Positions 31,146-63,698 of a stretch of 64,000 nucleotides of DNA are shown here, piece after piece. Both the position numbers and the translations under genes were made by a program. This DNA comes from a virus, in the IMG/VR virus record IMGVR_UViG_3300029049_000006. One strand, 5' to 3'. The notes under the pieces are model-generated. The model searched no databases. It saw only the letters and a list, made by a program, of their open reading frames with translations, and had not been told where the DNA came from. Positions within the stretch are counted from its first letter, which is position 1. The number at the start of each line of letters is the position of its first letter.

Positions 31146-32636
31146 ATGCACCAGGACACCGACGCAGAAAATGCCGCCAGTCAGAGCCGGTTGAACGAAA
31201 CCGCCATGCTGATTCCCCGGCTGCTGTTAAAAGCCCGTACTGATTTTATTGCATTTTTGCTTGCCATTTCCGACGACGAATCCGGCTACATCCTGTCCCG
31301 AATGCACCTGTTTATTGCGGGCAAGCTCAATGATACCGTCACCCGGAAGGACGTGCCGAGGAATTACACTATTTCCGTACCACCCCAGCACGGGAAGTCC
31401 TCCCTGATTGTGCGGTATGTCGCGTGGCTGGTTGGGTCTTATCCCAGATTGTGCGTTGCCCTGACCGGCTTCTCCGCTGAATTGATGGGTCAGATGCTCC
31501 GGCAGGTCACATCCATTATGGATTTGCCCGTGTACCAGGTAATTTTTCCCGGAGTGAAAGTGAAGCCGAAGGATGACCGCTGGGACTATAAACGGTTCAC
31601 CAATGACGCTATTATTTATGCTAAGCCGGCAGGCTCCAAGCTGACCGGGAGGCGGGTGGACATCCTCATTATTGACGACCCCCATGCCGGACGTGCCGAA
31701 GCCGAATCCCCCACTATCCGCAACCGCGTTGTGCAGTGGGCAGTTGCAGACTGCTTTTCCCGCCTTTCGCCTCATTGGCGGGTGTTTGTCATTGGAACCC
31801 GGTGGCATCCGGAAGACCTCATTGGACATCTCACCGGGCGGGAATACAATAAACGGCTTGAAATGCTTGGCAATACCGCCATGAAATTTGAAGTCATCAA
31901 GATTCCCGCTATCTGCGAAGACCCGGCTACCGACCCCCTGGGGCGGAAGGCTGGGGAAGTAGCATTCCCGGAAGAGCGTGACTTGGAGTTTTTAACATCC
32001 ATCCGTGGGGCCATGACTACGACAGAATGGAAATCCCAGTATCAGCAGGAGCCGGTCACGTCCAAGGGCGGGCAGGTCAACGCGGACGATTTTAACCTCA
32101 TTTCCCCGGAGGAAGTGCCGTGGAGCGAGCTGACGGCCATAGGCTCCGGCTGGGACTTGGCCGCAACCGACAAAACGGCATCCGACTGGACCGTGGGCGC
32201 ATGCGGGGCGCGGACAAAGGATGGCCGCCTGTATATTTTCGACCAGTTCCGCAGGCAAATGCAGATTCCAAAACTGCTTCCGGCCATTGAAGCCCGCGCC
32301 CTGGCGTGGAAAGATATGTACGGGGCCAATCAGCTGGGCGTGGAAGGCGTGGGGGGCATGGTGGGGTATTATCAGCAGCTCCGGCAAATGCTCCTGGGAA
32401 AAATCAGCGTGCGGCTCAAAAATCCCCCGGTCAAAGGAGGGGGAAAACTGGTGCGGGCGCAAAACTGGCTGGCTCTGGTGGAGGCAAAAAAAGTGTATCT
32501 GGTACAGGCTCCCTGGGTGCGGTCGTTTCTGGAAGAGGTGGAAGTATTCCCGGACGGGGACCACGATGACCAGGTGGACAGCGTATCCATTCTTTACGAG
32601 CTTCTGTTTCTCTCCGCCCGCATTCTGGTCGGATAG
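31146..32636 (+). CDS. terminase large subunit
   Basis: Walker A VPPQHGKSSLIV. Walker B-like VDILIIDDPHAG. FVIGTRWHPEDL. Nuclease domain DLAATDKTASDWTV ... FPDGDHDDQVDSVS. Confidence 0.85.
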   Translation: MHQDTDAENAASQSRLNETAMLIPRLLLKARTDFIAFLLAISDDESGYILSRMHLFIAGKLNDTVTRKDVPRNYTISVPPQHGKSSLIVRYVAWLVGSYPRLCVALTGFSAELMGQMLRQVTSIMDLPVYQVIFPGVKVKPKDDRWDYKRFTNDAIIYAKPAGSKLTGRRVDILIIDDPHAGRAEAESPTIRNRVVQWAVADCFSRLSPHWRVFVIGTRWHPEDLIGHLTGREYNKRLEMLGNTAMKFEVIKIPAICEDPATDPLGRKAGEVAFPEERDLEFLTSIRGAMTTTEWKSQYQQEPVTSKGGQVNADDFNLISPEEVPWSELTAIGSGWDLAATDKTASDWTVGACGARTKDGRLYIFDQFRRQMQIPKLLPAIEARALAWKDMYGANQLGVEGVGGMVGYYQQLRQMLLGKISVRLKNPPVKGGGKLVRAQNWLALVEAKKVYLVQAPWVRSFLEEVEVFPDGDHDDQVDSVSILYELLFLSARILVG

Positions 32637-32666: not shown

Positions 32667-32988
32667 TTTCAGAGACCGCGCCCAAAAGCTTTTTTCCTTT
32701 ACTTTTCACTTTTCCGGCACAAACAATACCAGCCCATGAAGTTCCACAGCCTTTCCATGCTTTTTACGCTCCGTGGCCCTCCCCGCCCTGTTTTTCAGCT
32801 TGTCCCCCAGGCAATCCGCGAACGGTCGGATGCGCGAGGACGGGAACGCATCATTTCCCGCGTCTGAAATAAATGGCTTTCACCATCAGGCGCAATCTCC
32901 GCATTTCCTTTTTCTGTTGCCTTCGCCGGATTGCCCCCCCTCGTCAGGAAGGGAACGGCAAACCGTAACCATAAACAAAAAGATAGAA

Positions 32989-33864
32989 ATGACAGTTCAA
33001 ACCTTACCGGCAACCGTGCCGGACAGCGTTTCTGCGACCTTGCGCGTCGTCATGAAGCCCGTGGAATCAATTCACCCCTACGAAAATAACCCCCGCTACA
33101 ACGACAGCGCGGTTCCCTACGTCAAAAACTCAATTCAGGAGTTCGGCTTCAAGGTTCCGATTATCGTCGATGAAGCCGGAAGCATTGTCTGCGGTCACAC
33201 GAGGTACAAGGTGGCCCTGGAATTGGGCATGAGCCATGTGCCTTGCATTGTCGCTTCGGATTTGACCCCAAAGCAGATTCAGGCGTTCCGCCTTGTTGAT
33301 AACAAGGTGTCGGAGTTTTCAAGCTGGGATTTTTCCAAACTTGAAATTGAGATAGGGGAGCTGGATGCCGAATTTAATCTTGATGACTTCGGTTTTTTCT
33401 CCGATTCAGAGCGGGCGGGAAGCTCGCCGGCGGATGTGGGCAGTGCCGCAGAAATGCAGGATGATACTGCGAGGGATGACCGGAATATCTATACAGGACG
33501 CATCATTACTCCGGTTTATGAAATTACCGGGGATTGTCCAAAAACCGAAGAGCTGGTTGACCGCACCAGAGCGGAATCCCTGCTGGAAGAGATTGACCGG
33601 ACCCCAGGGCTTCCGGATGCCGTGCGTGACTTTTTGCGTATTGCCGCCATGCGGCACTATGTCCTGCATTTCGACAGGATAGCCGAGTTTTACGCCCATG
33701 CGGTCCCTCCTGTGCAGCGGCTCATGGAAAACTCCTGTCTGGTCATTATTGATTATGACCGCGCCATTGAACTTGGATATGTGCAAATGGCACGTGCCCT
33801 GGCCGATGAATATGACCGAGAATACCCGGAAGGGGAAGAACAGGAAGGAGGCAGCGAATCATGA
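32989..33864 (+). CDS. ParB N-terminal (ParB/Srx nuclease-like) domain protein, paralog A
   Basis: FGFKVPIIVDEAGSIVCGHTRYKVALELGMSHVPC is a ParB-NTD signature (GHxR). Acidic linker. Conserved C-terminal domain shared with 37018-37860 (TPVYEITGDCP...FLRIAAMRHYVLHFDRIAEFYAHA). ATG 32989, and the track ORF begins at 32773. Confidence 0.6.
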   Translation: MTVQTLPATVPDSVSATLRVVMKPVESIHPYENNPRYNDSAVPYVKNSIQEFGFKVPIIVDEAGSIVCGHTRYKVALELGMSHVPCIVASDLTPKQIQAFRLVDNKVSEFSSWDFSKLEIEIGELDAEFNLDDFGFFSDSERAGSSPADVGSAAEMQDDTARDDRNIYTGRIITPVYEITGDCPKTEELVDRTRAESLLEEIDRTPGLPDAVRDFLRIAAMRHYVLHFDRIAEFYAHAVPPVQRLMENSCLVIIDYDRAIELGYVQMARALADEYDREYPEGEEQEGGSES

Positions 33865-34796
33865 TGCGGCACTCTGATTTCTGCGTCCTGATTATTTCCC
33901 ATGGACGGGCCGGGAGGGTGAAAACCCTGAACGCGCTTGAGCGTTTTGGCTATAGCGGCCCCTGGTACATTATTATCGACAATGAGGATTCACAGGCCGG
34001 GGACTACCTTAATTGCTATGGGAGTGACCACGTTGTTGTTTTTGATAAACCCCTTGAGGCATCCAGGCTGGACATAGCGGATAATTTTACAGGCCGTCTT
34101 GGGCGCAAAAGTACCGTGTACGTACGCAATGCGAGCTTTGACATTGCCCGCCGCCTGGGATTCCGGTATTTCATGGTGCTGGACGACGATTACGACTATT
34201 TCCGTTTCGTATTGGACAGCAACCGCCGCTATACTTGCCGGCGCTGTACCTGTCTGGACACAATCCTTGACATCTGCCTCGATTACTTCACCCGTACACC
34301 GGCCCTTGCCACCATAGCGTGGCTTCAAGGCGGCGACCTGCTGGGAGGGGCCAACTCCAACAGCCTTTTCAGCCTCCGGCGAAAAGCCATGAACAGTTTT
34401 ATCTGTGACACGGAACGCCCCTTTTCCTTCATGGGCCGGTTTAATGAAGACGTGAACACCTACATCACTCACGGAAACCGGGGAGTGATCATGTTCTCAA
34501 TTACGGAATTGGCGCTTAACCAGGCCAGCACCCAGCAGACGACGGGAGGGATGACGGAAGCCTACCAGGAAAACGGAACCTACGTGAAATCGTTTTACAG
34601 TGTCATGCATATGCCGTCTGCGGTGAAAATCCGGACAATGGGCGAACATTACCGAAGAATCCACCATGCTATTACATGGAATAATTGTGTGCCGAAAATC
34701 ATCCGTCCGGAGTACCAGAAACCGGATATTGTGCGGGGTGACAGAAGAAAACGCGGCAGGAGCCGAAAAAAACTGCTTGCAATTCCGGCCCCTTAA
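33861..34796 (+). CDS. GT-A-fold glycosyltransferase-like protein (DxD), paralog A
   Basis: FCVLIISHGRAGRV (cf. GT2 N-terminal vsIIIPTYNR). DxD YFMVLDDDYDYF. Paralog of 37906-38769. Confidence 0.5.
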   Translation: MMRHSDFCVLIISHGRAGRVKTLNALERFGYSGPWYIIIDNEDSQAGDYLNCYGSDHVVVFDKPLEASRLDIADNFTGRLGRKSTVYVRNASFDIARRLGFRYFMVLDDDYDYFRFVLDSNRRYTCRRCTCLDTILDICLDYFTRTPALATIAWLQGGDLLGGANSNSLFSLRRKAMNSFICDTERPFSFMGRFNEDVNTYITHGNRGVIMFSITELALNQASTQQTTGGMTEAYQENGTYVKSFYSVMHMPSAVKIRTMGEHYRRIHHAITWNNCVPKIIRPEYQKPDIVRGDRRKRGRSRKKLLAIPAP

Positions 34797-36955: not shown

Positions 36956-36979
36956 AACCATGCTAAGAATCCATGAGAA

Positions 36980-36996
36980 TTTGCAATCATTGCAAA
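36980..36996. repeat. intergenic palindrome, copy 12
   Basis: Perfect copy between the 36356 gene and ParB-like paralog B. Confidence 0.9.
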
Positions 36997-37017
36997 TTTC
37001 AAAAATCATTTTTACAC

Positions 37018-37860
37018 ATGGAAATTGTAGATATTGCCGTAAAAGACCTGGTTCCTTACGATAAAAATCCGCGCCGTAATGATGAAGCGGCCGTCAAGGT
37101 GGCGGAATCCATTAAACAGTTCGGCTTTAAGATTCCTCTTGTGGTTGACCGCAATAATGTTGTTGTCTGCGGACACACCCGTTTAAAGGCCGCAAAAAAG
37201 TTAAAGCTTAAAACTGTTCCTTGCATCCGGGCTGACGATTTGTCGGAAGACCAAATCAAGGCGTTCCGTCTGGTGGACAATCGGACGGCGGAAATCGCCG
37301 AATGGGATTTTGCCCTTTTAGAAGAGGAACTGGCGGACGTGCAGCTTGACATGACCGCCTTTGACTTCGGTGGGCTTTTGCCGGAAGAAGAGGGTGGGGG
37401 CGAAAACGGTCAGACCTCGGCGGGGGCCGGAAATGGAAGGGAGGAAGAAAGTGCATTACCGGATTCGCAAACTGCGGAAAATATGTACACGCAGCGCATC
37501 GTCACTCCGGTTTATGAAGTTACCGGGGATTGCCCGGAAGTGTCTTCTCTGGTGGACAAGGGCAAAGCGGAAGCGCTGCTGGAATCCATTGACCAAGCCC
37601 AGGAACTCCCGGATGATGTGCGGGAGTTTTTACGCATCGCCGCTGCCAGGCATTATGTTTTGCATTTTGACCGCATTGCCGAATACTACGCCCATGCCCC
37701 GGCCCATATTCAGCGGCTCATGGAAGATTCCTGTCTGGTCATCATTGATTTTAATAAAGCCATTGAGCAGGGATATATCCGCATGTCCGAACGGTTGGCC
37801 GCGCTGGCCAGCATAGACGAACAGGGCGCAACGGAAGAAGAAGACGAAGCGGGCGAATAA
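37018..37860 (+). CDS. ParB N-terminal (ParB/Srx nuclease-like) domain protein, paralog B
   Basis: FGFKIPLVVDRNNVVVCGHTRLKAAKKLKLKTVPC. Same C-terminal domain as paralog A. ATG 37018. The track ORF starts at 36973 and reads through palindrome copy 12. Confidence 0.6.
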   Translation: MEIVDIAVKDLVPYDKNPRRNDEAAVKVAESIKQFGFKIPLVVDRNNVVVCGHTRLKAAKKLKLKTVPCIRADDLSEDQIKAFRLVDNRTAEIAEWDFALLEEELADVQLDMTAFDFGGLLPEEEGGGENGQTSAGAGNGREEESALPDSQTAENMYTQRIVTPVYEVTGDCPEVSSLVDKGKAEALLESIDQAQELPDDVREFLRIAAARHYVLHFDRIAEYYAHAPAHIQRLMEDSCLVIIDFNKAIEQGYIRMSERLAALASIDEQGATEEEDEAGE

Positions 37861-37905
37861 CACAGGCCGCTTTGATTTTTTTACCGCAATAACTTTTCTT
37901 TTTTT

Positions 37906-38769
37906 ATGCTGACGCATTCCGATTTTTGTACGTTTATTTTGTCTCATGGGCGGCCAAATAACATCAGAACTCTGCACCCATTGTTAAACACCGGAAACTA
38001 CAGCGGCCCCTGGTACATCGTCATCGACAATGAGGACCCCACGGCGGAAACCTATTATCAGCTTTACGGCTCCAACCGGGTAATCATGTTTGACAAGGAG
38101 GCCGAAGCCCGCCGTCTGGATATTGCAGATAATTTCATCCACATGAGCCGCAAGACTATTACCTATGCTCGTAATGCCTGTTATGACATTGCCAGAAACT
38201 TAGGCTACACGTATTTTTGGCAACTGGATGACGATTATTGCCGGTTCCGGTACGTAACCGACCAGGCCGGAAAATACGTGTACCACAGCATCCGCCACAT
38301 GGACGAGGCGTTGAACGCGACGCTTGATTATTATAAAAGCGTTCCTTCCCTGACCCTGCTGTCCTGGATGCAGGGCGGGGATTTACTGGGCGGCGCCAAC
38401 AGCCAGTCTTTAACCGTGGTGAAGCGAAAAGCCATGAACAGCTTTATTTGCTCTACCGAGCGCCCCATAAAGTTCCGGGGCCGGATGAATGAGGACGTAA
38501 ACACCTATGTTTCCGAGGGCAACCGGGGAAAACTCATTATGATGGCGAATTGTGCCGGCATTTTACAGACCCCCACCCAGATTAACGACGGAGGAATCAC
38601 GGAACTTTACAGGTCTTGCGGCACTTACACCAAAGCAATGTACACTGTGATGCATATGCCCTCAGTAACTACAGTGGGCATGATGCACAGCACTTTTCCC
38701 CGGATTCACCACACGATAAATTGGAACAACTGCGTTCCGAAAATTATCCGGCAGGAGCTTAAAAAATAG
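37906..38769 (+). CDS. GT-A-fold glycosyltransferase-like protein (DxD), paralog B
   Basis: FCTFILSHGRPNNI. YFWQLDDDYCRF. Collinear with paralog A throughout. Confidence 0.5.
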   Translation: MLTHSDFCTFILSHGRPNNIRTLHPLLNTGNYSGPWYIVIDNEDPTAETYYQLYGSNRVIMFDKEAEARRLDIADNFIHMSRKTITYARNACYDIARNLGYTYFWQLDDDYCRFRYVTDQAGKYVYHSIRHMDEALNATLDYYKSVPSLTLLSWMQGGDLLGGANSQSLTVVKRKAMNSFICSTERPIKFRGRMNEDVNTYVSEGNRGKLIMMANCAGILQTPTQINDGGITELYRSCGTYTKAMYTVMHMPSVTTVGMMHSTFPRIHHTINWNNCVPKIIRQELKK

Positions 38770-43111: not shown

Positions 43112-45517
43112 ATGATTCAAGCCGCCCATTTTGACATCAAGAGCGTTACCGGACTCCGGCAGGCGCTGGTACTGTCCGCAGAGTACGAAAATGAGCCTTT
43201 CCCTCTTGAGGGCTATACCCTCCACGGCAGTATCGGGACGTACCCAAGAATGGATTTGAAATGTTCCGTGGACGAAAACGGTCGCGCCCGGATTGAATGG
43301 GATTCCGTGCCTCCGGGGAACTGGAAATATGATGTGTTTCTTATTAGCGCTAGCAACGATGAAAACCCCCTCATGGAAGGGACTTTCACCGCCCTTCCAA
43401 GAATCACCCCCGTTCTGGACGATGAATCCGTCAATGATGAGGTTGGCGGGGTTCTGCACCTGCCTTCCGGGAACGAGGGAACTATCACCTTGGAGGTTGA
43501 CGGCGGATTCGTCTCAAAAGAATATGCGGCCATTGCCAAGGATGCGGCGGAGAAGGCCCAACAGGCTCTGGAAGACATCAAGCAGGCATTGCAGGGCGTA
43601 GTCACGTCGATTGGCGGGGCATCCGGAGACATCCTTCTGGATTCCGGTCTGAAAATCACCGGCGACCGGGAAAAAGGCAATGTTTCCCTGTCCCTGGACG
43701 ACAAAACGGTCGTATTGACCGCGGGCAGCCAGACGATTGACGGCGTGAAAACCTTTTCATCCCCTCCCGTCATTGCGTCCGCCCCCGCTTCCAACAATGA
43801 GGCGGCAAACAAGAAGTATGTCGATGACATGGCGAGCAAGGCCACCGGCACTACCATTAACGGCGTTTCCGGGAACATCACGCTGGACCTTCCCATGCAG
43901 CTGGACCCTGGTACCAAGTCCATGTCTGTAGATTTGAGCGGCTACGCCTCTTTGCAGACGGATAACGTTTTTGAGGGCGGCAATACGTTTATGGCCGGAA
44001 TCAAGGGCCATGTCGACAGTGTAACCGGCACTGATATCCTGTACGCAACCAACGTCCCCGGCGACAGCAGCAGCGGGCATCCGGTATTGACCATTGAGCA
44101 TATCGGTTCCAGCAACGTGAGGATTTCCTCCGGAACGCACTTGATGTTGAAAGCCAGGGGCGGCAATATTTATGCGGAATCCAGCTTCACCGCGAACAAC
44201 AGCGTCAATGTTTACGGCTCCGCCCTGTTCAATTCCGGCGTAACTGCCAGCCAGTCGCTCACCGTGGGCGGCCATGCCCAGTTCAATGATACCGTGCGCG
44301 TGGAAACCGGGAAAATCGACCCCGGCAATTTCGGCCATACCTGGACATTCGGCTCACTGATTGATTCCCCCACGACTGACGACAACAACAATCACCGGCT
44401 ATGCTGCAAATCCACTTCCGACAACGGGGCCTACATCATCTACCATGAGCGGGTGATCAACGGCGCATGGATGAAAGATAAGATTATTCCCGCCTGCCAG
44501 TTCGATTTTTCCTGGCACAACGACGCCTCCCTTGTCGTCAAGGACCCCACTAAGGCGGAACAGGCCGCCAACAAAAATTATGTGGATTCGCAGTTTAATT
44601 GCCTGTCCCTGTCCTACATGACTCTGGACACCCCGCAAACGGTCAAAGCCGAAAAAACCTTTACCGGCAACGTCAATATCAACACCAACGGAAACAACGG
44701 CACGCTGACCCTGAAAACCAGCGGGGGCGTGGGGTATCTGGTAATGGACACCGGAGAATTCTCCATTTCTGTCGATTATCTCACTCTGGGGGGCCAAACT
44801 TTCGTTCAAACGCTGAATGTGGCGGAATCCTCCCTGTTCACCGGGTCCGTAACCGTGAGCCAATACCTGAAAACAAGCTCGCTGGACGCTGAAAACGTGG
44901 AAGCGAGTACGATAAATCTGGTGGATAGTGATGACCTGTCCTGCATTGACCTGATGCCGTTTTACGGCTCTCCAGATGAAGCAAGCCTAATCTTCCATCC
45001 CGCCCAGACCGGCCCCGGCACAACGGATTACGATATACAGCTTTATTTCACCTACGGTTCCAGCGGCGGCTTCGCGGACTGGCTGGCCGGACCATCTATA
45101 CAGATGATGCGGTTCCATCCGGCAATCGGGTTTTACAATGCGGTATCTTACAGCAATCCGGTAGTGTTTCTCGGTTCAGCTACATTCAGCGCCCTGTTGA
45201 AAGCGCAGCAGGCTGAAATAGACCAGCTGAAAATCAACAGCCCGTTGTATAAGGAGGGGTTTTTAGCCTGGCAGGATGCCGGGGGCCTCTCCATGACCCG
45301 CCCCAGCATTACGGAATCCCTATACGATGCCGACAACCCCAAAGCCATGTTGAACCGGGAAGACAACGACCAGCGCTATTTGCAGGTAAAATCCCTTACG
45401 GCGGCGGAATACGCAGCCCTCGGTTCCTACAGTCTGACAACCCTGTACCGGATTACGGATGCAGACCCCGCCGCGGTATATCTGGGGGACCTGAAATTAT
45501 CCGTGGCCGCCGACTGA
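43112..45517 (+). CDS. tail fiber protein
   Basis: 801 aa. Recurring phage tail-fibre motif xxAANKKYVDD (EAANKKYVDDMASKATG, AEQAANKNYVDSQF). Gly/Ser/Thr-rich, beta-rich composition. Confidence 0.7.
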   Translation: MIQAAHFDIKSVTGLRQALVLSAEYENEPFPLEGYTLHGSIGTYPRMDLKCSVDENGRARIEWDSVPPGNWKYDVFLISASNDENPLMEGTFTALPRITPVLDDESVNDEVGGVLHLPSGNEGTITLEVDGGFVSKEYAAIAKDAAEKAQQALEDIKQALQGVVTSIGGASGDILLDSGLKITGDREKGNVSLSLDDKTVVLTAGSQTIDGVKTFSSPPVIASAPASNNEAANKKYVDDMASKATGTTINGVSGNITLDLPMQLDPGTKSMSVDLSGYASLQTDNVFEGGNTFMAGIKGHVDSVTGTDILYATNVPGDSSSGHPVLTIEHIGSSNVRISSGTHLMLKARGGNIYAESSFTANNSVNVYGSALFNSGVTASQSLTVGGHAQFNDTVRVETGKIDPGNFGHTWTFGSLIDSPTTDDNNNHRLCCKSTSDNGAYIIYHERVINGAWMKDKIIPACQFDFSWHNDASLVVKDPTKAEQAANKNYVDSQFNCLSLSYMTLDTPQTVKAEKTFTGNVNINTNGNNGTLTLKTSGGVGYLVMDTGEFSISVDYLTLGGQTFVQTLNVAESSLFTGSVTVSQYLKTSSLDAENVEASTINLVDSDDLSCIDLMPFYGSPDEASLIFHPAQTGPGTTDYDIQLYFTYGSSGGFADWLAGPSIQMMRFHPAIGFYNAVSYSNPVVFLGSATFSALLKAQQAEIDQLKINSPLYKEGFLAWQDAGGLSMTRPSITESLYDADNPKAMLNREDNDQRYLQVKSLTAAEYAALGSYSLTTLYRITDADPAAVYLGDLKLSVAAD

Positions 45518-45553
45518 TTTACTTTACAGCAATCCCCCTCCGCCTATAATTGC

Positions 45554-46123
45554 ATGCCTATGAAAGACAACATCCTAGTGTTATGCCACAGCAACATGCA
45601 CCGCAGCCCGTTCGTTGCGGAATTCATCCGGAACTCCCCCTATGGAGACAGCTATGAAGTCCGCGACGCGGGACTGCACGTTGACAAGGAGCAGCGCGTG
45701 CCCAAATCCCTTCAGCGGGCCTTCCAGACCGTCTCCCAGGGGAGCCTGAAAAGCCACAAGTCGCGCCCGGTGGGAATCAGCGATATTCTGTGGGCGGATA
45801 AAATAATCATCATGGAGCCGGAGAACAAAAACGACCTCCTGCAAATGCTCGGAAGCCTGCACCTCTCCGACAAGCCCCGGTACGACCAGATTGTCTCCAA
45901 AATAATCTCCCTGGCCCAAATCGGCGGGAAGACAGCCGTGGACGACCCTCACCACTACTCCCCCGGAACGATCGAATACGGAAAAGTAGTATTAAACCTC
46001 GCCTGCCTGACAGCCGTCCTTCTGGAAACGTGGGAAGCCCAGCGTTCATTGAGCGGAGGGGAAAAATCCAAAGACCGGAAACCGGACGACGCGGAATCCG
46101 CAGCAGGCCCATTCGGAGCTTGA
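45554..46123 (+). CDS. low-molecular-weight protein tyrosine phosphatase (LMW-PTP/ArsC-like)
   Basis: P-loop ILVLCHSNMHRSPFVAEF gives CX5R(S) (cf. LCLGNICRSPMAE). DPYY-like loop AVDDPHHYSPG. Confidence 0.6.
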   Translation: MPMKDNILVLCHSNMHRSPFVAEFIRNSPYGDSYEVRDAGLHVDKEQRVPKSLQRAFQTVSQGSLKSHKSRPVGISDILWADKIIIMEPENKNDLLQMLGSLHLSDKPRYDQIVSKIISLAQIGGKTAVDDPHHYSPGTIEYGKVVLNLACLTAVLLETWEAQRSLSGGEKSKDRKPDDAESAAGPFGA

Positions 46124-46561
46124 CCCCTGCCCCCCCCGCATACAATACCGCACAGCATGCACTTCATCATGATATATGCTTTCGGCGCAGGACAATGAAA
46201 GCCTCCGGTGGAGGCTGATTCAGATGAATGTAATCGTCGTCTGGTTCTATCTCCTGCGGCTCCGGGATTCCGGAAGCTGGAACAAACACCTGCAGCAGAA
46301 GCTGGACGACACGGAACTCGTCTTTTTAATCATCAAATGGTACATGTGGTACACGCCTGTCCTGTTCCCCGCCTGATTGCGGGCGGTGAGATGAGATAAA
46401 ATGATGAGACGCGCGGAAAAAACGTGTAAAACGTGTAAAACATGTATATGTGCAGTGTATGTATGCAGGGGGGGGACATATCGCGCGCAGGCGCGGATGC
46501 GTAAAGGCATGCGGCCCTACCCCCCCCTATGGAAGTAAATAAATAAAGAAAAAAATCGGAA

Positions 46562-49829: not shown

Positions 49830-49879
49830 TTTTTTTCGCACTCTCATGAGTGCGTGGATTGAAACTGCAACACCAGCCT

Positions 49880-50545
49880 ATGAGCGTTTTTACCTATCCG
49901 GTCGAGGGCCTTCGCCGCGTGCTGATTCCGCAGAAATGCGGCTGGACGCTAGCCTGGGATTCCCTCCCCCGCTGGAACGGTCGGGTGGTGATTGACTCCA
50001 ATGACTACCCCGCGAAAAATCTGGACTGCATGTTTGTCAGGGAGCCGGTGGCCCGGTTCATGTCCGCTTTCCGGAACAAGATAGAGTTCGGGCCGCAGTC
50101 CTACCCCAAAAACGCCAACGGTCAGTTCAACGTCTGGTCCGGCATCCAATGGGTTGCCTGTGTGTGCGGCATCCCCCCGGACCTGGTGCAGAAGCAGGTT
50201 ACTGTGTCCCTGATGCTGGACGTGTTGGAGGACATCATCAAAAAAAAACCGAGGGCGGCGCAATACAACCACGCCGTACTTGACCCGCACTGGTCCCCGC
50301 AGGTCTATCATGTGGCCCCCGGCCATATTCCGGAACTGCTCATTGACCCCCGGAACGATTTTTCCGTCCTGGACAGATTAAAAATTGACTACTCTACGCA
50401 CAATCACAATAATACCAGCCGTTATGGAGGCTACCAGCCTACACCGGAAGAGGTCGCACGCATCAAGGCCCTGTATGCCGAGGATGTAGCACTTTACGCC
50501 AGATACCAGCATGATTACGCCCTTCGCCAGTTACCCGCCCAGTGA
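49880..50545 (+). CDS. sulfotransferase-family protein
   Basis: 5'-PSB-like CMFVREPVARFMSAFRNKI (cf. FVFVRNPWDRLVSAY). C-terminal YGGYQPTPEEVARIKALYAEDVALY resembles the Stf0 / Sulfotransfer_3 tail. ATG 49880 (the track starts at GTG 49850). Confidence 0.55.
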   Translation: MSVFTYPVEGLRRVLIPQKCGWTLAWDSLPRWNGRVVIDSNDYPAKNLDCMFVREPVARFMSAFRNKIEFGPQSYPKNANGQFNVWSGIQWVACVCGIPPDLVQKQVTVSLMLDVLEDIIKKKPRAAQYNHAVLDPHWSPQVYHVAPGHIPELLIDPRNDFSVLDRLKIDYSTHNHNNTSRYGGYQPTPEEVARIKALYAEDVALYARYQHDYALRQLPAQ

Positions 50546-51362
50546 CGCCCCGGAGTTCATCAAATACTCCCACCACCTGATTGACCTCGCCTTGAGAAAA
50601 GCCCGGCGTCCGGCCATCCTCTGTTCCTACGGCAAGGATTCCGGCGTTGTCCTGCATTTGCTCTCCCAGCACGTCGATTTATCCCGCATCGACGTTATTT
50701 ACATTGATTCCACTTTTGAATTCCCGGCGTTTTACAAGCACATTGCCAGGATGAAGGCTTTTTTCGGCATCCGGCACGGCGGCCCTCATGACGTGCGCTG
50801 CCAGAATAACCAGGCCATCCGTTCCGGCATGTCCTACGACAACACCCCGGTGCTCAAGTTGACGCAGACCCTGAAAACCGACGTATTGGTGCAGGTGCTG
50901 AAAGAGCGGAATATTGACTTTCTGTTCACCGGCATCCGGCGCGACGAAGAGGGTTCTCGCGCCAAGGAACGTTATTTTTCCTACCGGGAAGCCGACGGCA
51001 CGTTTGACCCGGTAAGCAACCGCCCCGGATTCTACCCGTTGGATGGGCTGGATGTGCAGTCCCCCGGTTCCGGGCACTATCGCGTCAATATCCTTCTGAG
51101 CTGGTCGGAGCGGGACGTATGGGAGTACACGGAAAAGCACCTGCTTCCTGTCTGCCCGCTGTACCTTGCCAAAAACGGGAAACGCTACCGCTCCCTTGGA
51201 GACGAGCCGGTGACTACTCCGGTGGATTCCGACGCTGACAGTATCGACAAAATCATTAAGGAGCTGTACCATACCAGCGTGCCGGAACGGGCATGCCGGA
51301 AATCACAGGATAATTCCGCGCCGTATGCAATGGAGATGCTGCGGCGCAAGGGATTCTGCTAA
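50511..51362 (+). CDS. cysD: sulfate adenylyltransferase subunit 2-like (CysD/NodP, PAPS-reductase superfamily PP-loop)
   Basis: PP-loop ILCSYGKDSGVVLHLL. LFTGIRRDEEGSRAKERYFSYRE matches the CysD signature GxRRDEEKSRAKERIFSFRD. LSWSERDVWEYTEKHLLPVCPLYL (cf. NWTELDIWQYI..E.IP.VPLYF). Confidence 0.75.
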   Translation: MITPFASYPPSDAPEFIKYSHHLIDLALRKARRPAILCSYGKDSGVVLHLLSQHVDLSRIDVIYIDSTFEFPAFYKHIARMKAFFGIRHGGPHDVRCQNNQAIRSGMSYDNTPVLKLTQTLKTDVLVQVLKERNIDFLFTGIRRDEEGSRAKERYFSYREADGTFDPVSNRPGFYPLDGLDVQSPGSGHYRVNILLSWSERDVWEYTEKHLLPVCPLYLAKNGKRYRSLGDEPVTTPVDSDADSIDKIIKELYHTSVPERACRKSQDNSAPYAMEMLRRKGFC

Positions 51363-51392
51363 CAGTTCCATTTTTTCCTTTCCGCTCTTGCC

Positions 51393-52115
51393 ATGATACC
51401 GGATGACCCGTTCACCCAGCCGGAAAAAAAACCTGAAAAGCCGGGAGGCATCACGCAAATCTGGATAGGCGGAGAAGATAATATACCGCAGGAAATGCGG
51501 GAATGGATGTCCGGGGTGCGGGCCTACTGTAACCGGTTCGACCTTCCGTACCGCTGCTTGAACGGGAGGCAATGCAAGGCCCTGCTGGATGAGTTCGGCA
51601 TCCCGTTCAACCCTACCGGGGGCATCATGAGCCTGACCGACATGGCGCGGGTGTGCGCCCTGAAAAAATGGGGCGGCTGGTATCTGGACACAGACGTAAA
51701 AATCCAGCGTCCGGCAGCCTTCCATGATTACTCGGTTTCCGTCTGCGAACAGGAGCCTTCTACTGTTTTTTACAATGCCATCACCTACGGCTGGATGTAC
51801 AATCACGGAGTGCTTTACGCTTCCGGGGACGATTCCTGTTTGTTTCTGGATGTCATGCTGGATGCGTGCCGGGAGACGTACAGGACAGTCCATGCTTCCG
51901 ATTCCGGGTGGGGGCTGGAAAGCACCGTTCAAAATATAGTGCATCATGACCGCCAATGGGTAGGCTGGCATCGAGGACTGCCAAAGGGCGTTTGCGATTG
52001 CGGCAATCCGTCCAGCATGATTAACCATGTGCTTTATGGGACCTGGTACAATAGCGCACACATGACTCCCGGCATCAAGGACGCGGAAACTTATTCAAGG
52101 GTTTCCGATTTGTAG
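51393..52115 (+). CDS. glycosyltransferase, GT32-like (Gly_transf_sug, DxD)
   Basis: ITQIWIGGEDNIPQE. KKWGGWYLDTDVK. Matches the conserved QIWIG / GGxYxDxD blocks. Confidence 0.55.
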   Translation: MIPDDPFTQPEKKPEKPGGITQIWIGGEDNIPQEMREWMSGVRAYCNRFDLPYRCLNGRQCKALLDEFGIPFNPTGGIMSLTDMARVCALKKWGGWYLDTDVKIQRPAAFHDYSVSVCEQEPSTVFYNAITYGWMYNHGVLYASGDDSCLFLDVMLDACRETYRTVHASDSGWGLESTVQNIVHHDRQWVGWHRGLPKGVCDCGNPSSMINHVLYGTWYNSAHMTPGIKDAETYSRVSDL

Positions 52116-52164
52116 CCCGGAATAATTTTTGCAAAAAAGAAAAAACAATGGTAATACGTAGCGC

Positions 52165-53016
52165 ATGCCACGTGAAAAAATCATCATTGCCGTGTGCGGA
52201 ATCCCTGACACGGGAAAAAGCACCTTTATCGCCAACGCCGCAAAACACCTGAACGGAATGGAGGTCCAACCGGATGCCCTGTGCGTAGAACAGCAGACCG
52301 GGAAAACCATTGCAACCTCATTCATCACCACCTGGGGCGAAGAGTGGCAGCGGGACGGAAAAACCTGCGATTTGGTCTTTGTGGACTGCCCCGGCCATGT
52401 GCAGTTCCTTCCGGAGATTGTCGCGGGCTTGTCTGCGGCCCATGCCTACATTGTCATCCATGACGCTTCCCGCATTGAGGCGAGCCAGGCATATGCCCGG
52501 ATGCTGGAAGATGTCGCAGGCGTGCTTAGCGTGCCTCGGCTCGCCACCCTCTACAGCCATTGCGACAGCACCGGGGAATACTGCTACAACGTAGGTGTTG
52601 ACAACCGGCTTCCGGGAACTGCCGAAAGGGTTATCCGGCGTGCCCTGGCGGGCGGCAAAGATAAGCTGGTCCATCCCACGGCATCCTGGCTTGGCTACAT
52701 CCGGCAGGAGCCGTTCGATACGCCTGATGCCCGGCACAGGGTGTCCGTCATCTGGCTTCCCTGCGCTTCCCGGCTCACTCCGGTTTCCCTTCTCCGGGCG
52801 GAGCTTCCCGACCGAACGGTCGAACTCGGAGAGGCTGGCTCCGTTCTAGACCCCATCCCCAGGGAAAGCGACTTCCAGACCGCCCCATTGATACGGCACA
52901 TTTACCTGCAATTCCCTGTCCGGTATCTGGACCCCGTGCGCTTCCTGATTTGCGACTCGGAGCTGGGAACGGTCGGAGTCGGAACAGTAACCCCGTGGGA
53001 AACCCAAATGTTATGA
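52165..53016 (+). CDS. EF-Tu-like GTPase, CysN/NodQ-like (GTPase domain only)
   Basis: G1 AVCGIPDTGKSTFI (cf. GHVDHGKST). G3 DCPGHVQF. No clear NKxD. 283 aa, shorter than CysN. Confidence 0.45.
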   Translation: MPREKIIIAVCGIPDTGKSTFIANAAKHLNGMEVQPDALCVEQQTGKTIATSFITTWGEEWQRDGKTCDLVFVDCPGHVQFLPEIVAGLSAAHAYIVIHDASRIEASQAYARMLEDVAGVLSVPRLATLYSHCDSTGEYCYNVGVDNRLPGTAERVIRRALAGGKDKLVHPTASWLGYIRQEPFDTPDARHRVSVIWLPCASRLTPVSLLRAELPDRTVELGEAGSVLDPIPRESDFQTAPLIRHIYLQFPVRYLDPVRFLICDSELGTVGVGTVTPWETQML

Positions 53017-53234
53017 GCAACGTAGCCATCCCCTACCGGCCCCACGACTGCCCCGTCTGCGGAAAGAACCTTTGCTACAGCGCCGGAAAGGACGGCTGCT
53101 ATTATTCCTGCCCGGAATGCAGGTATTCCGTCCAGTCCGGTGCGACCCTGCAAGAAGCACAAAGGCATCTTTTCATTTTTACGGCGGCAGTCCTCAAAAA
53201 TCAGAACACGCAACACGACACCATCATCCAATGA
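53013..53234 (+). CDS. small zinc-ribbon protein
   Basis: CPVCGKNLCYSAGKDGCYYSCPEC. ATG 53013 overlapping the upstream stop. Confidence 0.35.
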   Translation: MSNVAIPYRPHDCPVCGKNLCYSAGKDGCYYSCPECRYSVQSGATLQEAQRHLFIFTAAVLKNQNTQHDTIIQ

Positions 53235-53734
53235 TTATTCTTCTCACCGGCGAAAGCGGCGTAGGAAAAACGTCTGTGGCAAAAACCCTGATGAACCGGC
53301 ATCCAGGCATCCTTCTCGACGGCGATGACATGCGGGACGGATTGAACAGCGACCTCGGATTTTCCGACCGGGACATCATGGAGAACATGCGCCGGGCGGC
53401 GCACATAGCCGTACTGCTGCATGACCAGCTTCCGGAAGACCGGCGCACGGTTTACATCACCTGCATTGCCCCGCTGCTGGCCGGAAGGAATCTGGTGCAT
53501 GAGCTGTGCGGTTCCCGGTTGTGGGAGATCCGCATCCAGTATGATTACCGGGCCTCCGACGACGTAAAAGGATTGTACAAGGCGGGAACCCCCATGCGGG
53601 CCTACGAAGAGTACCCCAGCGAAACGTTGCTGCTCCCCCGCCGGATAAACCGCGTATATCGGTACTACAACGATACCGTGTGCGCTCTGGCCGCCAAAAT
53701 AGAAAAGCTGTGGCCCACAGACAAAACCGCTTGA
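53231..53734 (+). CDS. cysC: adenylylsulfate (APS) kinase
   Basis: P-loop LTGESGVGKTSVA. LDGDDMRDGLNSDLGFSDRDIMENMRRAAHIAVLL matches CysC [34 protein letters not shown] (cf. FISP). Confidence 0.8.
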   Translation: MIILLTGESGVGKTSVAKTLMNRHPGILLDGDDMRDGLNSDLGFSDRDIMENMRRAAHIAVLLHDQLPEDRRTVYITCIAPLLAGRNLVHELCGSRLWEIRIQYDYRASDDVKGLYKAGTPMRAYEEYPSETLLLPRRINRVYRYYNDTVCALAAKIEKLWPTDKTA

Positions 53735-58643: not shown

Positions 58644-60032
58644 ATGAGATTTCTTCCCTCTCTTTTCAGGCGGAAAGGCCACGAACAGCGGTTGTCCGTA
58701 GCATGGAACAGTCTGGATTCCCGCCAACGGTCGGTCCTCATGGAACTCGCGTCCTATCTCGGCAACGGCATTGACGGGGACCGGACAAACCTCCGGTATA
58801 TCGACCTGGTGAACCATGTCCGGGTGGACCCCCTGGACAGCTATGAAAAGTACATCAAAACAGGGACCGGCCAGGTATGGGCTACGTTTGTAGCCTGCAA
58901 TCTGGTGGCTAATGTTTTGGTGTCAACTACGTTCCAGGTTGTCAAATCCGGCTCCGATACGCCCCTTGACAGCACGCGCCACCCGCTGGCAAAGCTAATC
59001 GCGCAGCCGAATGAGTGGGACTCGTGGGAGGATTTAATCTATCAGTGGGTATTCCACATCAAACTGACCGGCAACGCGTACTGGCTGAAAAACCAAGTCA
59101 ACGGGTACGGGCAGCCCCTGGAACTGATTCCCCTGCTTCCGCAGTACGTCAAAATCATCCCTGACCAGACTTCCAGAATCAAGGAATACCAATACCAGGT
59201 CAATGGCCTGTGCATTACATACGCTCCGGAAGAAATTATCCATTTCCGGAGGCCCCACCCCAATTCCTTCATCCTTGGTCTGGGAGATATTGAGCCGTCA
59301 AAGTCATTGTATGAATCCTTTATTACCGGGGACGAGCTTCAAAAGCGGGTGTACTCCAATGGGGCCGTCATCAGCGGCGTATTGAGCAATGATTCCGATT
59401 TGCTCTCACAGGAGGAATTTGACCATGCCGTGGAGAGCTTCCGCTCCAAATACGAGGGGAAGAAAAACGCGGGAAAAACGGCGTTCCTTTCCGGCAAATG
59501 GAGCTATACCCGGCTCGGAATGACCAACAGCGAGCTTCAAAGCCTTGAGCGGGATAAGACCAGCGTTGAGCAGATATTCATCAATCACGGGGTTCCCCTT
59601 TCCGTTGCGGGCATTAAGGACGCCGCCAACTACGCCACATCCAAACAGGACGCTATCGCGTTCCGGAAACAGGCATGCCTTCCGCTGGCCGATATTCTTG
59701 TAGGCAAATTGAACTCGGAAAAAGGGCTGACACCCGCCTACCGGGATAAAACCCTGAAAATCGACTATAACATGTCTGGCCTCGTGGACATTGAGCAGAT
59801 GGTGAAGGAAAACCAGCCGTTGCTGGAATCCGGGGCGCTTACCCCGAACGAACTCCGGGAAAAGTGCGGCCTGTCCAGAGTTGACGACCCTTATCTTGAC
59901 CAGTATTTCATCAAATCGAATCTGGTTCCTATGGAACTGTCCGGGATGGGTATGGGAGAGTCGCTGGAAGAAAGCGCCCGAACGGTCGTGACCGGATTCA
60001 CCAAATCTCGTTGCGGCGGCCACCCGCATTGA
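58644..60032 (+). CDS. portal protein
   Basis: 462 aa. Position between the chaperonin and head-morphogenesis genes. Composition and size typical of HK97/SPP1-type portals. Motif-level support is weak. Confidence 0.55.
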   Translation: MRFLPSLFRRKGHEQRLSVAWNSLDSRQRSVLMELASYLGNGIDGDRTNLRYIDLVNHVRVDPLDSYEKYIKTGTGQVWATFVACNLVANVLVSTTFQVVKSGSDTPLDSTRHPLAKLIAQPNEWDSWEDLIYQWVFHIKLTGNAYWLKNQVNGYGQPLELIPLLPQYVKIIPDQTSRIKEYQYQVNGLCITYAPEEIIHFRRPHPNSFILGLGDIEPSKSLYESFITGDELQKRVYSNGAVISGVLSNDSDLLSQEEFDHAVESFRSKYEGKKNAGKTAFLSGKWSYTRLGMTNSELQSLERDKTSVEQIFINHGVPLSVAGIKDAANYATSKQDAIAFRKQACLPLADILVGKLNSEKGLTPAYRDKTLKIDYNMSGLVDIEQMVKENQPLLESGALTPNELREKCGLSRVDDPYLDQYFIKSNLVPMELSGMGMGESLEESARTVVTGFTKSRCGGHPH

Positions 60033-62985: not shown

Positions 62986-63698
62986 ACTTTGTCTGGCTCA
63001 ACAACCAATTCGGCAACCAGATATGGCAGATTGCCGTGGCGACGTTTTTTTTTGGAAGGGGGAACTTTGCCGCGATAACCTCCTATGCCGTGCCGCTGAA
63101 AGGAATTGGCTTCCACGCATTTCTGCACGTGCCCTGTTTTCCGTTCAACCGGGAGACAAGCGCCCTCGCCCCGCAAACGGTTTACGTCAAAAGAGGGGTT
63201 CCCATTCCTCGCGGCACAAACTCCATCAGTGACGGGCAGTTGCAGGACGTAGCCTATTTGCGTAATCTGGATGCCCGCCAGTTATTGACGTTTGACGGCA
63301 TTGACAACGATTTCCGCATTGTCCATGTCCGGGGCGGCGATTTTTTTACCAGCAAGCCGCACAGGCCCTACGTCAAAAACCGGGACTGGTATCTTAAAGC
63401 CATTGACGCTGTGCCCGATATGCGGAAGCACCGGGACAAAACAGTATTGCTTACAAACGACAAAAAATACGCGGGGAAAATCCTTCCCGAATTTCCCATA
63501 CTGGACGTGCCGCCCTTGACTGCGTTCCGGCTGATGATGGGCTGTCGCTCTCTGGTTATATCCGCGTCATCCTTTGGCTGGTGGGCCGGGTATCTGAATC
63601 CGTCAGCGCAGATTGCCGCTCCTTCCCGGTGGTGCGGCGCCGGAGAGGATTCGGCGAAATATTACGGGCATAGCCGCTTGATGTTCATACCTGATTAA
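62982..63698 (+). CDS. glycosyltransferase, GT11 (alpha-1,2-fucosyltransferase)-like
   Basis: N-terminal LNNQFGNQIWQIAVA (cf. GGLGNQMFQYA). C-terminal SSFGWWAGYLNP (cf. STFSWWAAYL). ATG 62982 overlaps the upstream stop. Confidence 0.5.
   Translation: MNFVWLNNQFGNQIWQIAVATFFFGRGNFAAITSYAVPLKGIGFHAFLHVPCFPFNRETSALAPQTVYVKRGVPIPRGTNSISDGQLQDVAYLRNLDARQLLTFDGIDNDFRIVHVRGGDFFTSKPHRPYVKNRDWYLKAIDAVPDMRKHRDKTVLLTNDKKYAGKILPEFPILDVPPLTAFRLMMGCRSLVISASSFGWWAGYLNPSAQIAAPSRWCGAGEDSAKYYGHSRLMFIPD

Follow-up and report, generated by a model that had tools for sequence, protein, structure and literature searches.

A divergent LMW-PTP-type phosphatase gene in a dispensable accessory cassette of a common human gut phage

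Phosphatases of the Wzb, Etp and AmsI type belong to the LMW-PTPs, and their cognate kinases are BY-kinases such as Wzc. A second cysteine in the P-loop, which is typical of the LMW-PTP family but not universal within it, acts as a redox-protective disulfide partner. A hydrophobic residue at P-loop position +4 is a trait of tyrosine phosphatases, while a threonine at this position is a trait of arginine phosphatases such as YwlE, in which T11 confers specificity for phosphoarginine. The gene described here is carried by a phage of about 89 kb that is common in the human gut, and was studied in a 64,000-nt stretch of its DNA (IMG/VR record IMGVR_UViG_3300029049_000006), hereafter called the window. 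The locus is laid out as follows.

43112..45517, + strand: fibre-like ORF of 801 aa (BppL_N, 3e-8; PHROG 26758 tail fibre, 9.5e-8)
45523..45550, + strand: sigma-70-like promoter candidate, TTTACA-16 nt-TATAAT, ending 9 nt before the ATG at 45560
45554..46123, + strand: LMW-PTP-superfamily phosphatase gene, 189 aa from the ATG at 45554, more likely 187 aa from the ATG at 45560
45584..45607, + strand: P-loop, C11-H12-S13-N14-M15-H16-R17-S18, with C11, N14, R17 and S18 invariant in alignments A2, A3 and A7
45944..45958, + strand: D-loop, D131-P132-H133-H134-Y135, with D131-P132 invariant or nearly so
46046..46120, + strand: C-terminal tail, residues ~165-189, ending AAGPFG[AS], of low confidence
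46176..46376, + strand: Trp-rich ORF of 66 aa that travels with the phosphatase gene

The initial annotation had proposed an LMW-PTP or Wzb-like enzyme, and not an arsenate reductase, from a VLCHSNMHRSP P-loop and a DPYY-like loop. The 189-aa ORF on the + strand holds the first motif exactly, the second corresponds to D131-P132-H133-H134-Y135, and the family assignment is borne out by profile, catalytic residues and fold. Pfam LMWPc (PF01451) matched residues 7-133 with 29.0 bits (E=1.4e-6), above its gathering cut-off of 23.2 bits. When the family profile (alignment A3) was compared with PDB chains, Wzb and LMW-PTP chains matched over their full length at 1e-20 to 4e-23, the best being Wzb of Vibrio vulnificus (3.7e-23) and of E. 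coli (1.2e-22). In the P-loop, the Cys is the nucleophile, the Asn is structural, and the Arg and Ser bind phosphate. D131, the predicted general-acid Asp of the D-loop, is conserved in at least 90% of the sequences in alignment A3, where P132 is invariant, and alignment A2 shows H68, the conserved structural His (bovine H72), to be invariant along with D131-P132. The full canonical catalytic set (C11, N14, R17, S18, H68, D131 and P132) is kept across distant homologues, Wzb among them, and judged by these residues the protein is a divergent but catalytically complete LMW-PTP-type enzyme.

An AF2 model built on a deep alignment of 60 diverse homologues reached a pLDDT of 93.5 and a pTM of 0.85; a first model from a shallow 11-sequence alignment (pLDDT 50) was discarded. 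Strand beta1 spans residues 5-11 and helix alpha1 begins at residue 17, with the P-loop directly after beta1, and the predicted structure has the LMW-PTP fold, with a Rossmann-like, four-stranded parallel beta-sheet. Comparison with Wzb and Ptp structures agreed with this, the best PDB matches in Foldseek being LMW-PTP, Wzb and YwlE (TM 0.78-0.86), and the top 40 consisting of LMW-PTP, Wzb, YwlE and YfkJ (target-normalised TM 0.71-0.86). A PADLOC match to GajA (17.6 bits, E=2.4e-4, 57 residues) was weak and was judged to be spurious Rossmann-like similarity. Against a lineage with 81% identity the dN/dS ratio was 0.14, demonstrating that purifying selection acts on the gene. Because the Pfam score lies above the cut-off, the catalytic residues are invariant, dN/dS is low and the predicted fold matches, the P-loop and D-loop motifs are not due to chance.

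Both ArsC and YwlE have the fold and the P-loop in common with this protein, and each was weighed as an identity. The idea of a thioredoxin-coupled arsenate reductase, ArsC chains being present in the match lists, is effectively refuted: the only cysteines are C11 and the unconserved C151 (Tyr, Glu or Thr in relatives), and ArsC is excluded because the relay cysteines, for which Cys82 and Cys89 of pI258 ArsC served as reference, are absent. In addition, ArsC chains matched only the N-terminal half of the profile (positions 2-80) at 1e-8 or worse, compared to 1e-20 to 1e-23 for Wzb and LMW-PTP, and the first ArsC match in Foldseek came at rank 42. A YwlE-type protein arginine phosphatase is very improbable. 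YwlE is among the top fold matches (4pic, 4.5e-10; 4kk3) and the profile matches (4.7e-20), but its specificity-conferring Thr at +4 is replaced by the hydrophobic M15, and, as a weaker inference, the SD-poor genes and the Gram-negative-phage-like DNA polymerase do not suggest a host with an McsB-type arginine kinase.

Compared to Wzb, the phosphatase shares the fold and the catalytic residues (P-loop Cys, Asn, Arg and Ser; the conserved His; the DP general acid) at only 17-21% identity; it is encoded by a phage, and neither a BY-kinase nor Wza lies next to its gene. The Wzb-type P-loop C[VL]GNICRS contrasts with CHSNMHRS, which has no Gly at +2, His at +1 where Leu, Val or Thr is usual, and H16 at +5 in place of the second Cys of CxGNxCRS; in the nearest 141 relatives this last position is mostly Y, N or H. 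The D-loop, DPHHY, is two residues longer than that of Wzb, the alpha4-beta4 loop, where Wzc docks in Wzb, carries a 6-11 residue insertion, and an extra 25-residue C-terminal tail is present. Two of the five key Wzc-docking side chains of E. coli Wzb (D77, R98, K100, H106 and W107; PMC9245664) are kept, the D77/K100 pair appearing as D82 and K116; the W107 position is I123, also hydrophobic, while R98 (V114/S115) and H106 (Q122) are not kept. The tail is probably disordered, with a pLDDT of about 63-65 over residues 170-189 of the model. Its residues A183, A184, G185, P186, F187 and G188 are invariant within the phosphatase clade, and it is missing from the relatives P0030 and P0032. On the combined signature of a CHSNMHRS P-loop and a DPHHY D-loop, we recognize a distinct LMW-PTP lineage that is new here.

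Outside the phage clade, the closest proteins form a bacterial "CYGNIYRSP" LMWPc group, with E values of about 1e-9 and, across the first 90 residues, 34-41% identity. Like the phosphatase, these proteins have RSPFVAE[YF]LR following the P-loop, and their +1 residue is aromatic or His; the second Cys is often lost here as well. Unlike it, they have a short DPY D-loop and are extended by 35-45 residues at the N-terminus or fused to an ATP-grasp domain; some are fused or adjacent to ATPgrasp_Ter. These closest non-phage relatives are encoded in exosortase/PEP-CTERM exopolysaccharide loci, with flippase, GT4, deacetylase and exosortase genes around them. A search of 185,579 species genomes for a prophage copy found none, only bacterial cousins with 23-48% identity (best segment), and neither the locus nor the protein matched any of 50,697 phage records (INPHARED) by megablast or tblastn. 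The DNA polymerase and portal of this phage are only 26-43% identical to those of cultured phages, too little for a host to be assigned from them. For 146 contigs, nr already lists an identical protein under the name "Protein-tyrosine-phosphatase [Caudoviricetes sp.]"; this is a real gene, and public databases already name its family correctly. The NCBIfam profile search returned no match for the protein, and the BFVD viral structure search no significant one.

The true start is probably the ATG at 45560, because the ATG at 45554 is unconserved, being AGG in the diverged relatives L001, L002, L004 and L059, and because MKDNILV is the N-terminus of most homologues. Upstream lies the promoter candidate, which agrees with 11/12 positions of a sigma-70 consensus that may not suit a Bacteroidota-like host. 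In the diverged L001/L002/L004 lineage the spacer and the flanks differ, yet both hexamers and their 16-nt distance are unchanged; across the region, promoter-like sites are not more frequent than expected (5 found, compared to 6.4 in shuffled sequence). We infer that the site acts as a promoter, in which case the phosphatase mRNA would be nearly leaderless; no Shine-Dalgarno motif was found upstream of the gene.

Gene calling picked up the 66-aa ORF on hundreds of contigs, and it matched no family. A homologue of equal length (BLASTP E=2e-7, 31% identity) lies 3' of the phosphatase gene in an otherwise unrelated phage, L006, where a hairpin with a T-run behind it, which we read as terminator-like, directly precedes the pair. 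In the window itself, hairpins at 46200-46216 and 46304-46323 were rejected as terminators, both being inside the 66-aa ORF. Natural variants with a truncated or chimeric phosphatase (L066, L068, P0021 and P0029) demonstrate that the phosphatase belongs to a dispensable accessory cassette. The ParB fusions of P0021 and P0029 were rejected as real domain architectures, since they resemble deletion or assembly chimeras. These broken copies might suggest a decaying passenger gene that has no current function in the phage. We consider this exceedingly improbable, as the intact copy predominates (8/10 places in one comparison and 10/10 in another), dN/dS is low, and the catalytic residues and promoter hexamers are all conserved. 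The conserved promoter-like site, the companion ORF and the variant truncations are new observations.

Examination of the neighborhood placed the gene outside the main tail module, within the variable region that separates terminase from portal; the portal/capsid module lies some 15 kb further downstream. The gene had been described as directly following the tail fibre gene. The position holds, with the 801-aa ORF ending 36 nt upstream, but the fibre label rests on one short collar motif. This ORF is missing from variants L066 and L068. Adjacency does not imply co-function, because the phosphatase gene has its own promoter-like site and is truncated or chimeric in variants. Neither the 251-aa downstream ORF nor other neighbours matched a family in Pfam, PHROG or PADLOC, the 251-aa ORF also lacked a PDB sequence match, and no tRNA gene was found within the window. 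The claim of a glycosyltransferase-rich genome was correct: profile matches within the window include two TAGT genes, which form two ParB_N-TAGT pairs, a DXD-type GT and a GT11, and two GT25 genes lie just outside it. A module 4 kb downstream of the phosphatase gene encodes a sulfotransferase, a CysD-like protein, a GT, a GTPase and an APS kinase.

With a probability of roughly one in two, we propose that the protein is an active LMW-PTP-type phosphomonoesterase, carried in an accessory cassette, that dephosphorylates a host phosphoprotein. It would be soluble and cytoplasmic; R17 and the backbone of the P-loop would hold the phosphate for attack by C11, with D131 as general acid/base. The promoter-like site, the phosphatase gene and the 66-aa ORF together form a self-contained, dispensable, "moron-like" cassette. 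The likeliest job of the enzyme would be to dephosphorylate a protein of the infected cell. The leading but unproven target is a BY-kinase-type phosphotyrosine protein controlling polysaccharide export, and it is plausible that the phosphatase controls host capsule or EPS in this way. M15, the hydrophobic residue at P-loop +4, is consistent with a tyrosine phosphatase, and the exopolysaccharide loci of the bacterial relatives, together with the many GTs and the PAPS/sulfotransferase module of the phage, are circumstantial pointers toward capsule. Of the Wzc-docking positions, D82, K116 and the hydrophobic I123 speak for this reading, and the lost R98 and H106 equivalents and the alpha4-beta4 insertion speak against it. 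Also against it, searches for a BY-kinase, Wza or other kinase partner (Pfam, NCBIfam and PHROGs on window ORFs, and Pfam on the flanks; ~84 of ~89 kb) found none. Were the enzyme to act on a host BY-kinase or phosphoprotein, a very common gut phage would be rewiring bacterial tyrosine-phosphorylation signalling. Since capsule export is under BY-kinase control, this could also alter phage adsorption, superinfection and how the bacterium deals with its own host.

Among the phage relatives examined, a family of LMWPc proteins with the motifs CHGN[IV]NRS...IPDPAF was located inside pyrimidine-hypermodification operons in 5/5 sampled contexts (L007, L008, L060, L061 and L062). Its neighbours encode an amino-acid:DNA transferase (AADT), an FAD oxidoreductase, Amidoligase_2, 5-hmdU DNA kinase, ThyS or TET/JBP; translation of the family genes is coupled to that of Amidoligase_2, with AADT and either 5-hmdU DNA kinase or TET on the flanks. 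We note, as a by-product, that these LMWPc proteins make up a broad phage family and are a fixed part of DNA-hypermodification operons; a literature search on phage LMW-PTPs in hypermodification clusters found no paper. The family members are about 140-160 aa in length; like the phosphatase, they are phage-encoded and have the MDxGN motif, His at P-loop +1, no second Cys, and a long D-loop (DPAFMxxG[ST] in that family), two residues over that of Wzb. Identity to the phosphatase is 25-31%, and the best PHROG match of the phosphatase is PHROG 12429 (1.6e-8), which is CHGN[IV]NRS-like and of unknown function. Placement of the phosphatase inside this family was rejected, since the family HMM scored 70-78 bits, compared to 80-95 bits for the bacterial EPS-locus group, with Wzb about the same.

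These resemblances bear on the possible, though unlikely, alternative that the phosphatase hydrolyses a non-protein phosphoester tied to the glycan, sulfation or DNA-modification chemistry of the phage, and is a biosynthetic helper and not a signalling enzyme. The substrate could then be PAP, which PAPS-dependent sulfotransfer leaves as a by-product, or else a sugar phosphate or DNA that bears a phosphorylated base or glycan. Besides the operon setting of the hypermodification family and the P-loop and D-loop traits held in common with it, the ParB_N-TAGT pairs and the downstream sulfotransferase/APS kinase module are consistent with this alternative. The pocket positions are also unusually His-rich (H12, H16, H133 and H134), rather than aromatic or aliphatic, and could suit a non-protein anionic substrate. 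A supporting precedent is LMW-PTP L13R/I16K (PDB 6y2v), in which basic residues engineered at the equivalent positions reportedly shift specificity toward anionic non-protein substrates (PMC7316235). However, Pfam found no AADT, amidoligase, HMUDK, ThyS or TET in about 84 of ~89 kb, the HMM scores do not put the phosphatase clade in the hypermodification family, neither the TAGT genes nor the sulfation genes lie next to the phosphatase gene, and truncated variants circulate. The phage L006 likewise had no match to the sulfotransferase, CysD-like and TAGT proteins of the window in the 15.8 kb of it that was compared.

A more specific form, which we consider improbable, is that the phosphatase gene and its 66-aa companion make up a mobile cassette of two genes and act on a non-protein substrate, an anionic intermediate or by-product of the unusual glycan and sulfation chemistry of the phage. 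Examples would be PAP from the phage-encoded PAPS/sulfotransferase pathway, or DNA with a phosphate on one of its glycans or bases. If so, the "C[HY]xN" branch of the LMW-PTP fold, including the hypermodification-operon members, would be a previously unrecognised class of nucleic-acid/glycan-modification phosphatases. The by-products of this analysis may perhaps be worth more than the phosphatase itself, namely the LMWPc family of the hypermodification operons and the PAPS-synthesis, sulfotransferase and glycosyltransferase module of this phage, which is complete-looking.

The initial annotation had placed the gene for an LMW-PTP (a protein tyrosine phosphatase of low molecular weight) directly after the tail fibre gene, and our analysis bore out the reading frame and its two signature loops:

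45554..46123, plus strand: phosphatase ORF, 189 aa, product beginning MPMKDNILVLCHSNMHRSPFVAEF
45584-45607, plus strand: P-loop CHSNMHRS, within the phosphatase ORF
45944-45958, plus strand: D-loop DPHHY, within the phosphatase ORF

Because the first ATG (45554) reads AGG in diverged relatives and most homologues begin with MKDNILV, the true start is probably the ATG at 45560; residues are nevertheless counted here from 45554. The product matched Pfam LMWPc (PF01451) across residues 7-133 with 29.0 bits (E=1.4e-6; gathering cut-off, 23.2 bits), and its top PHROG match (1.6e-8) was family 12429, whose function is unknown. As a single sequence it matched PDB chains weakly (Thermus LMW-PTP, 0.063; the arginine phosphatase YwlE, 0.14), indicating a divergent LMW-PTP member. 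When 1.84 billion representatives were searched exhaustively with phmmer, only 12 matches fell below 1e-10, every one of them within the same clade, and the nearest proteins beyond the close clade were P0030 (54% identity) and P0032 (46%). Positions L8, C11, N14, R17, S18, G40, H68, I84, M87, N91, D131 and P132 were invariant in the alignment of distant homologues, among them the catalytic and structural residues that are canonical for LMW-PTPs. Aligned with Wzb of E. coli and Vibrio, the phosphatase keeps C, N, R, S, D82, K116 and D131-P132. With 11 close sequences as input, AF2 gave a poor model (pLDDT 50), and one built from a 60-sequence alignment reached a pLDDT of 93.5 and a pTM of 0.85. 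The first Foldseek matches in the PDB were LMW-PTPs, Wzb, AmsI, YfkJ and YwlE (E 1e-10 to 1e-8; target TM 0.78-0.86).

Arsenate reductase (ArsC), which has the same fold, was the alternative that the initial annotation had named. The family profile matched Wzb chains over their full length (3.7e-23 and 1.2e-22) and ArsC over the N-terminal half only (1e-8 or worse), and pI258 ArsC ranked 42 at best in the Foldseek search of the PDB. The phosphatase contains two cysteines, of which C151 is not conserved, so that the ArsC relay is absent. An ArsC identity was rejected on the missing relay, the half-length profile match and the Foldseek rank, and with the catalytic Cys and Arg both present the original LMW-PTP assignment holds. 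Every defining feature of the superfamily that is open to in silico testing was present except the optional second Cys, and the protein did not fit the tested features of ArsC, YwlE-type arginine phosphatases or the hypermodification-operon family described below. As far as sequence and model can tell, membership of the LMW-PTP superfamily stands, and the Wzb functional class is unproven.

Among the 141 best matches, the P-loop was overwhelmingly C-[YH]-G-N (~54 CYGN and ~54 CH[GA]N, with the second Cys often missing), and the canonical C[LT]GNxCRS occurred in ~6, indicating a non-canonical LMW-PTP branch in which two groups are recognisable. The bacterial 'CYGNIYRSPFVAEYL' group includes Thiodiazotropha, Rhodanobacteraceae, Steroidobacter and other environmental bacteria. 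In Ca. Thiodiazotropha endolucinida, the LMWPc gene lies in an exopolysaccharide (EPS) locus, among genes for a Wzx-like flippase, a GT4, a polysaccharide deacetylase (DUF3473), two α/β hydrolases and the exosortase EpsH, and in Steroidobacter it adjoins an ATPgrasp_Ter protein, the two being fused in some proteins. Bacterial relatives with the P-loop CYGNIYRS (L021 1516-9463; L056 7776-9652; P0061, P0069) were seen in exosortase (EpsH)/PEP-CTERM-type EPS loci. The phage group comprises proteins of 140-160 aa with the motifs CHGN[IV]NRS...MDxGN...IPDPAF, and all five sampled contexts were pyrimidine-hypermodification operons:

L007, 8001-8441: phage-group LMWPc
L008, 8001-8423: phage-group LMWPc
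L060, 5427-5906: phage-group LMWPc
L061, 6001-6432: phage-group LMWPc
L062, 6001-6423: phage-group LMWPc

One arrangement runs AADT, FAD oxidoreductase, Amidoligase_2, LMWPc, P-loop 5-hmdU DNA kinase, HMUDK_hel, ThyS and HD phosphohydrolase, and the other TET/JBP, GATase, Amidoligase_2, LMWPc, AADT and P-loop kinase. The LMWPc gene often overlaps the Amidoligase_2 stop, and an amino-acid:DNA transferase and a 5-hmdU DNA kinase or TET/JBP flank it; no account of a phosphatase step in such pathways turned up in the literature searched. Pairing of LMWPc with an amide ligase recurs, with ATP-grasp in bacteria and Amidoligase_2 in phages. When one HMM was built per group, the phosphatase clade scored 80-95 bits against the bacterial EPS group and 70-78 bits against the phage group, and Wzb scored about equally against both, indicating that the clade is a lineage of its own, nested in neither. 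Placement inside the phage hypermodification group was rejected on these scores. The clade shares the RSPFVAE motif with the bacterial group, and a His at P-loop +1 and a two-residue-longer D-loop with the phage group.

The surrounding genome is arranged as follows:

1-16 kb: replication genes (Rep_O-like, DnaB, PolA, RNase H, helicase, RecA)
31146-32636: large terminase
32773-34796 and 36973-38769: two tandem pairs of ParB_N and TET-associated glycosyltransferase (TAGT) genes
46176-46376: Trp-rich 66-aa ORF, after the phosphatase gene
49850-50545: Sulfotransfer_2 sulfotransferase
50511-51362: CysD-like PAPS_reduct protein
51393-52115: DXD-type glycosyltransferase
52165-53016: EF-Tu-like GTPase, which may be a truncated CysN
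between this GTPase and the APS kinase: ~70-aa ORF
53072-53734: APS kinase
58644-60032: portal
62817-63698: GT11, after the portal, overlapping the end of a 746-aa ORF
just upstream of the window (L084, 1-1957): two GT25 genes

A ParB_N-domain gene precedes TAGT in each pair, and no TET/JBP, ThyS or DNA C5-methyltransferase was detected in the genome version carrying both pairs; a DNA_methylase replaces one pair in the variant genomes L002 and L003, and nothing does in L004. After the pairs come a run of small ORFs, a fibre-like ORF of 801 aa, the phosphatase gene, the 66-aa ORF and an unknown ORF of 251 aa. The compact sulfation module (49850-53734) is conserved in L001-L004 and L083, and its gene content suggests that the phage may synthesise PAPS for itself and use it to sulfate a glycan, candidate targets being a surface glycan, the virion or a DNA glycan. 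Downstream of the window come the prohead protease, capsid and connector genes. The terminase-to-portal gap of ~26 kb consists of accessory genes (ParB/TAGT pairs, small ORFs, fibre-like protein, phosphatase, sulfation module), with Cpn10 in the same region of relatives; the phosphatase therefore sits in an accessory region, outside the main tail module. Pfam searches of ~84 of the ~89 kb found no BY-kinase, Wza, TET, ThyS, HMUDK, AADT or amidoligase.

Hundreds of contigs conserve the 66-aa ORF, which matched no known family. In phage L006, a homologue of the same length (10528-10728; BLASTP 2e-7; 31% identity) directly follows the phosphatase homologue; L006 otherwise resembles the window phage only in a short motif of the fibre collar and a single marginal match of 46 residues (E 8e-4). 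The L006 pair is located upstream of the tape measure, in a stretch of structural genes, and is preceded by a hairpin and T-run that read as terminator-like; no 66-aa ORF was found after the P0030 homologue on its short contig, L005. In the window, a promoter-like site (TTTACA-16-TATAAT; 11/12 consensus positions) ends 9 nt before the ATG at 45560, and its hexamers and spacing are invariant in the diverged lineage, in which the spacer sequence differs. Natural variants of the same phage have recombination breakpoints inside the phosphatase gene. In L066 (912-1448) other sequence stands in place of the N-terminal half and its P-loop; in L068 (1065-1448) only residues ~70-189 remain; both have other ORFs in place of the 801-aa fibre-like gene. 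P0021 and P0029 are junction products of the same kind, with a ParB-like N-terminus joined to the phosphatase. The region is a mosaic hot spot, and intact copies predominate (8/10 and 10/10 sampled places). Together, the L006 pair, the promoter-like site, the variants and the predominance of intact copies argue that the phosphatase and 66-aa ORF form an accessory cassette that is mobile and non-essential and is maintained by selection, a pattern that would be typical of host-directed 'moron' genes.

Judging from sequence and model, the P-loop would cradle the substrate phosphate, with C11 as nucleophile beside R17, S18 and N14, and D131 on a mobile loop would be the general acid in the standard two-step LMW-PTP mechanism with a cysteinyl-phosphate intermediate. 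A hydrophobic residue at P-loop +4 marks tyrosine phosphatases, and Thr marks YwlE; since this residue is M15, the substrate would be a phosphoprotein, probably carrying phosphotyrosine. A BY-kinase target is suggested by the best profile matches, which are Wzb, by the EPS loci of bacterial relatives, by the phage's glycan toolkit, and by conserved equivalents of Wzb D77 and K100 (PMC9245664). The suggestion is weakened by loss of the Wzb R98 and H106 equivalents, by an insertion in the docking loop, and by the lack of any phage-encoded kinase partner in the ~84 kb searched. The pocket is also unusually rich in His (H12, H16, H133, H134), so that the substrate may instead be anionic and not a protein, such as PAP from the sulfation pathway nearby, a sugar phosphate or a modified base in DNA. 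The action on host surface polysaccharide first proposed, a capsule role, is a reasonable hypothesis.

The exact phosphatase sequence occurs on 146 contigs, and most contigs carrying the gene were assembled from human gut metagenomes at 84-90 kb, which makes the window phage a common gut phage with a genome of ~89 kb. In nr, DAU37329.1 and DAY52478.1 have the identical sequence and already carry the annotation 'MAG TPA: Protein-tyrosine-phosphatase [Caudoviricetes sp.]'; UVX82760.1, nearly identical, goes under 'Low molecular weight phosphotyrosine protein phosphatase [Bacteriophage sp.]'. No paper on phage LMW-PTPs of this type turned up in the literature searched, and we regard the protein as new and uncharacterised within a known family. 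The window has a GC content of 51.7% and no tRNA genes. Even a weak Shine-Dalgarno-like motif precedes only 11/51 genes, most starts being preceded by A/T-rich sequence, which weakly hints at a Shine-Dalgarno-poor host lineage such as Bacteroidota; the phage polymerase shares 31-43% identity with the polymerases of siphophages that infect Proteobacteria. The phosphatase dN/dS was 0.14 against the 81%-identical L001 lineage. In four Logan-assembly variants, differences from the window protein were nearly all explained by A>G or T>C substitutions (P0010, 18/19; P0012, 27/29; P0014, 38/42; P0016, 45/49), whereas P0013, a case of real divergence, had a mixed spectrum. The pattern has the look of a systematic artefact of sequencing, base-calling or editing rather than of evolution, possibly linked to modified adenine, because the window encodes an N6_Mtase domain at 21086-21889.
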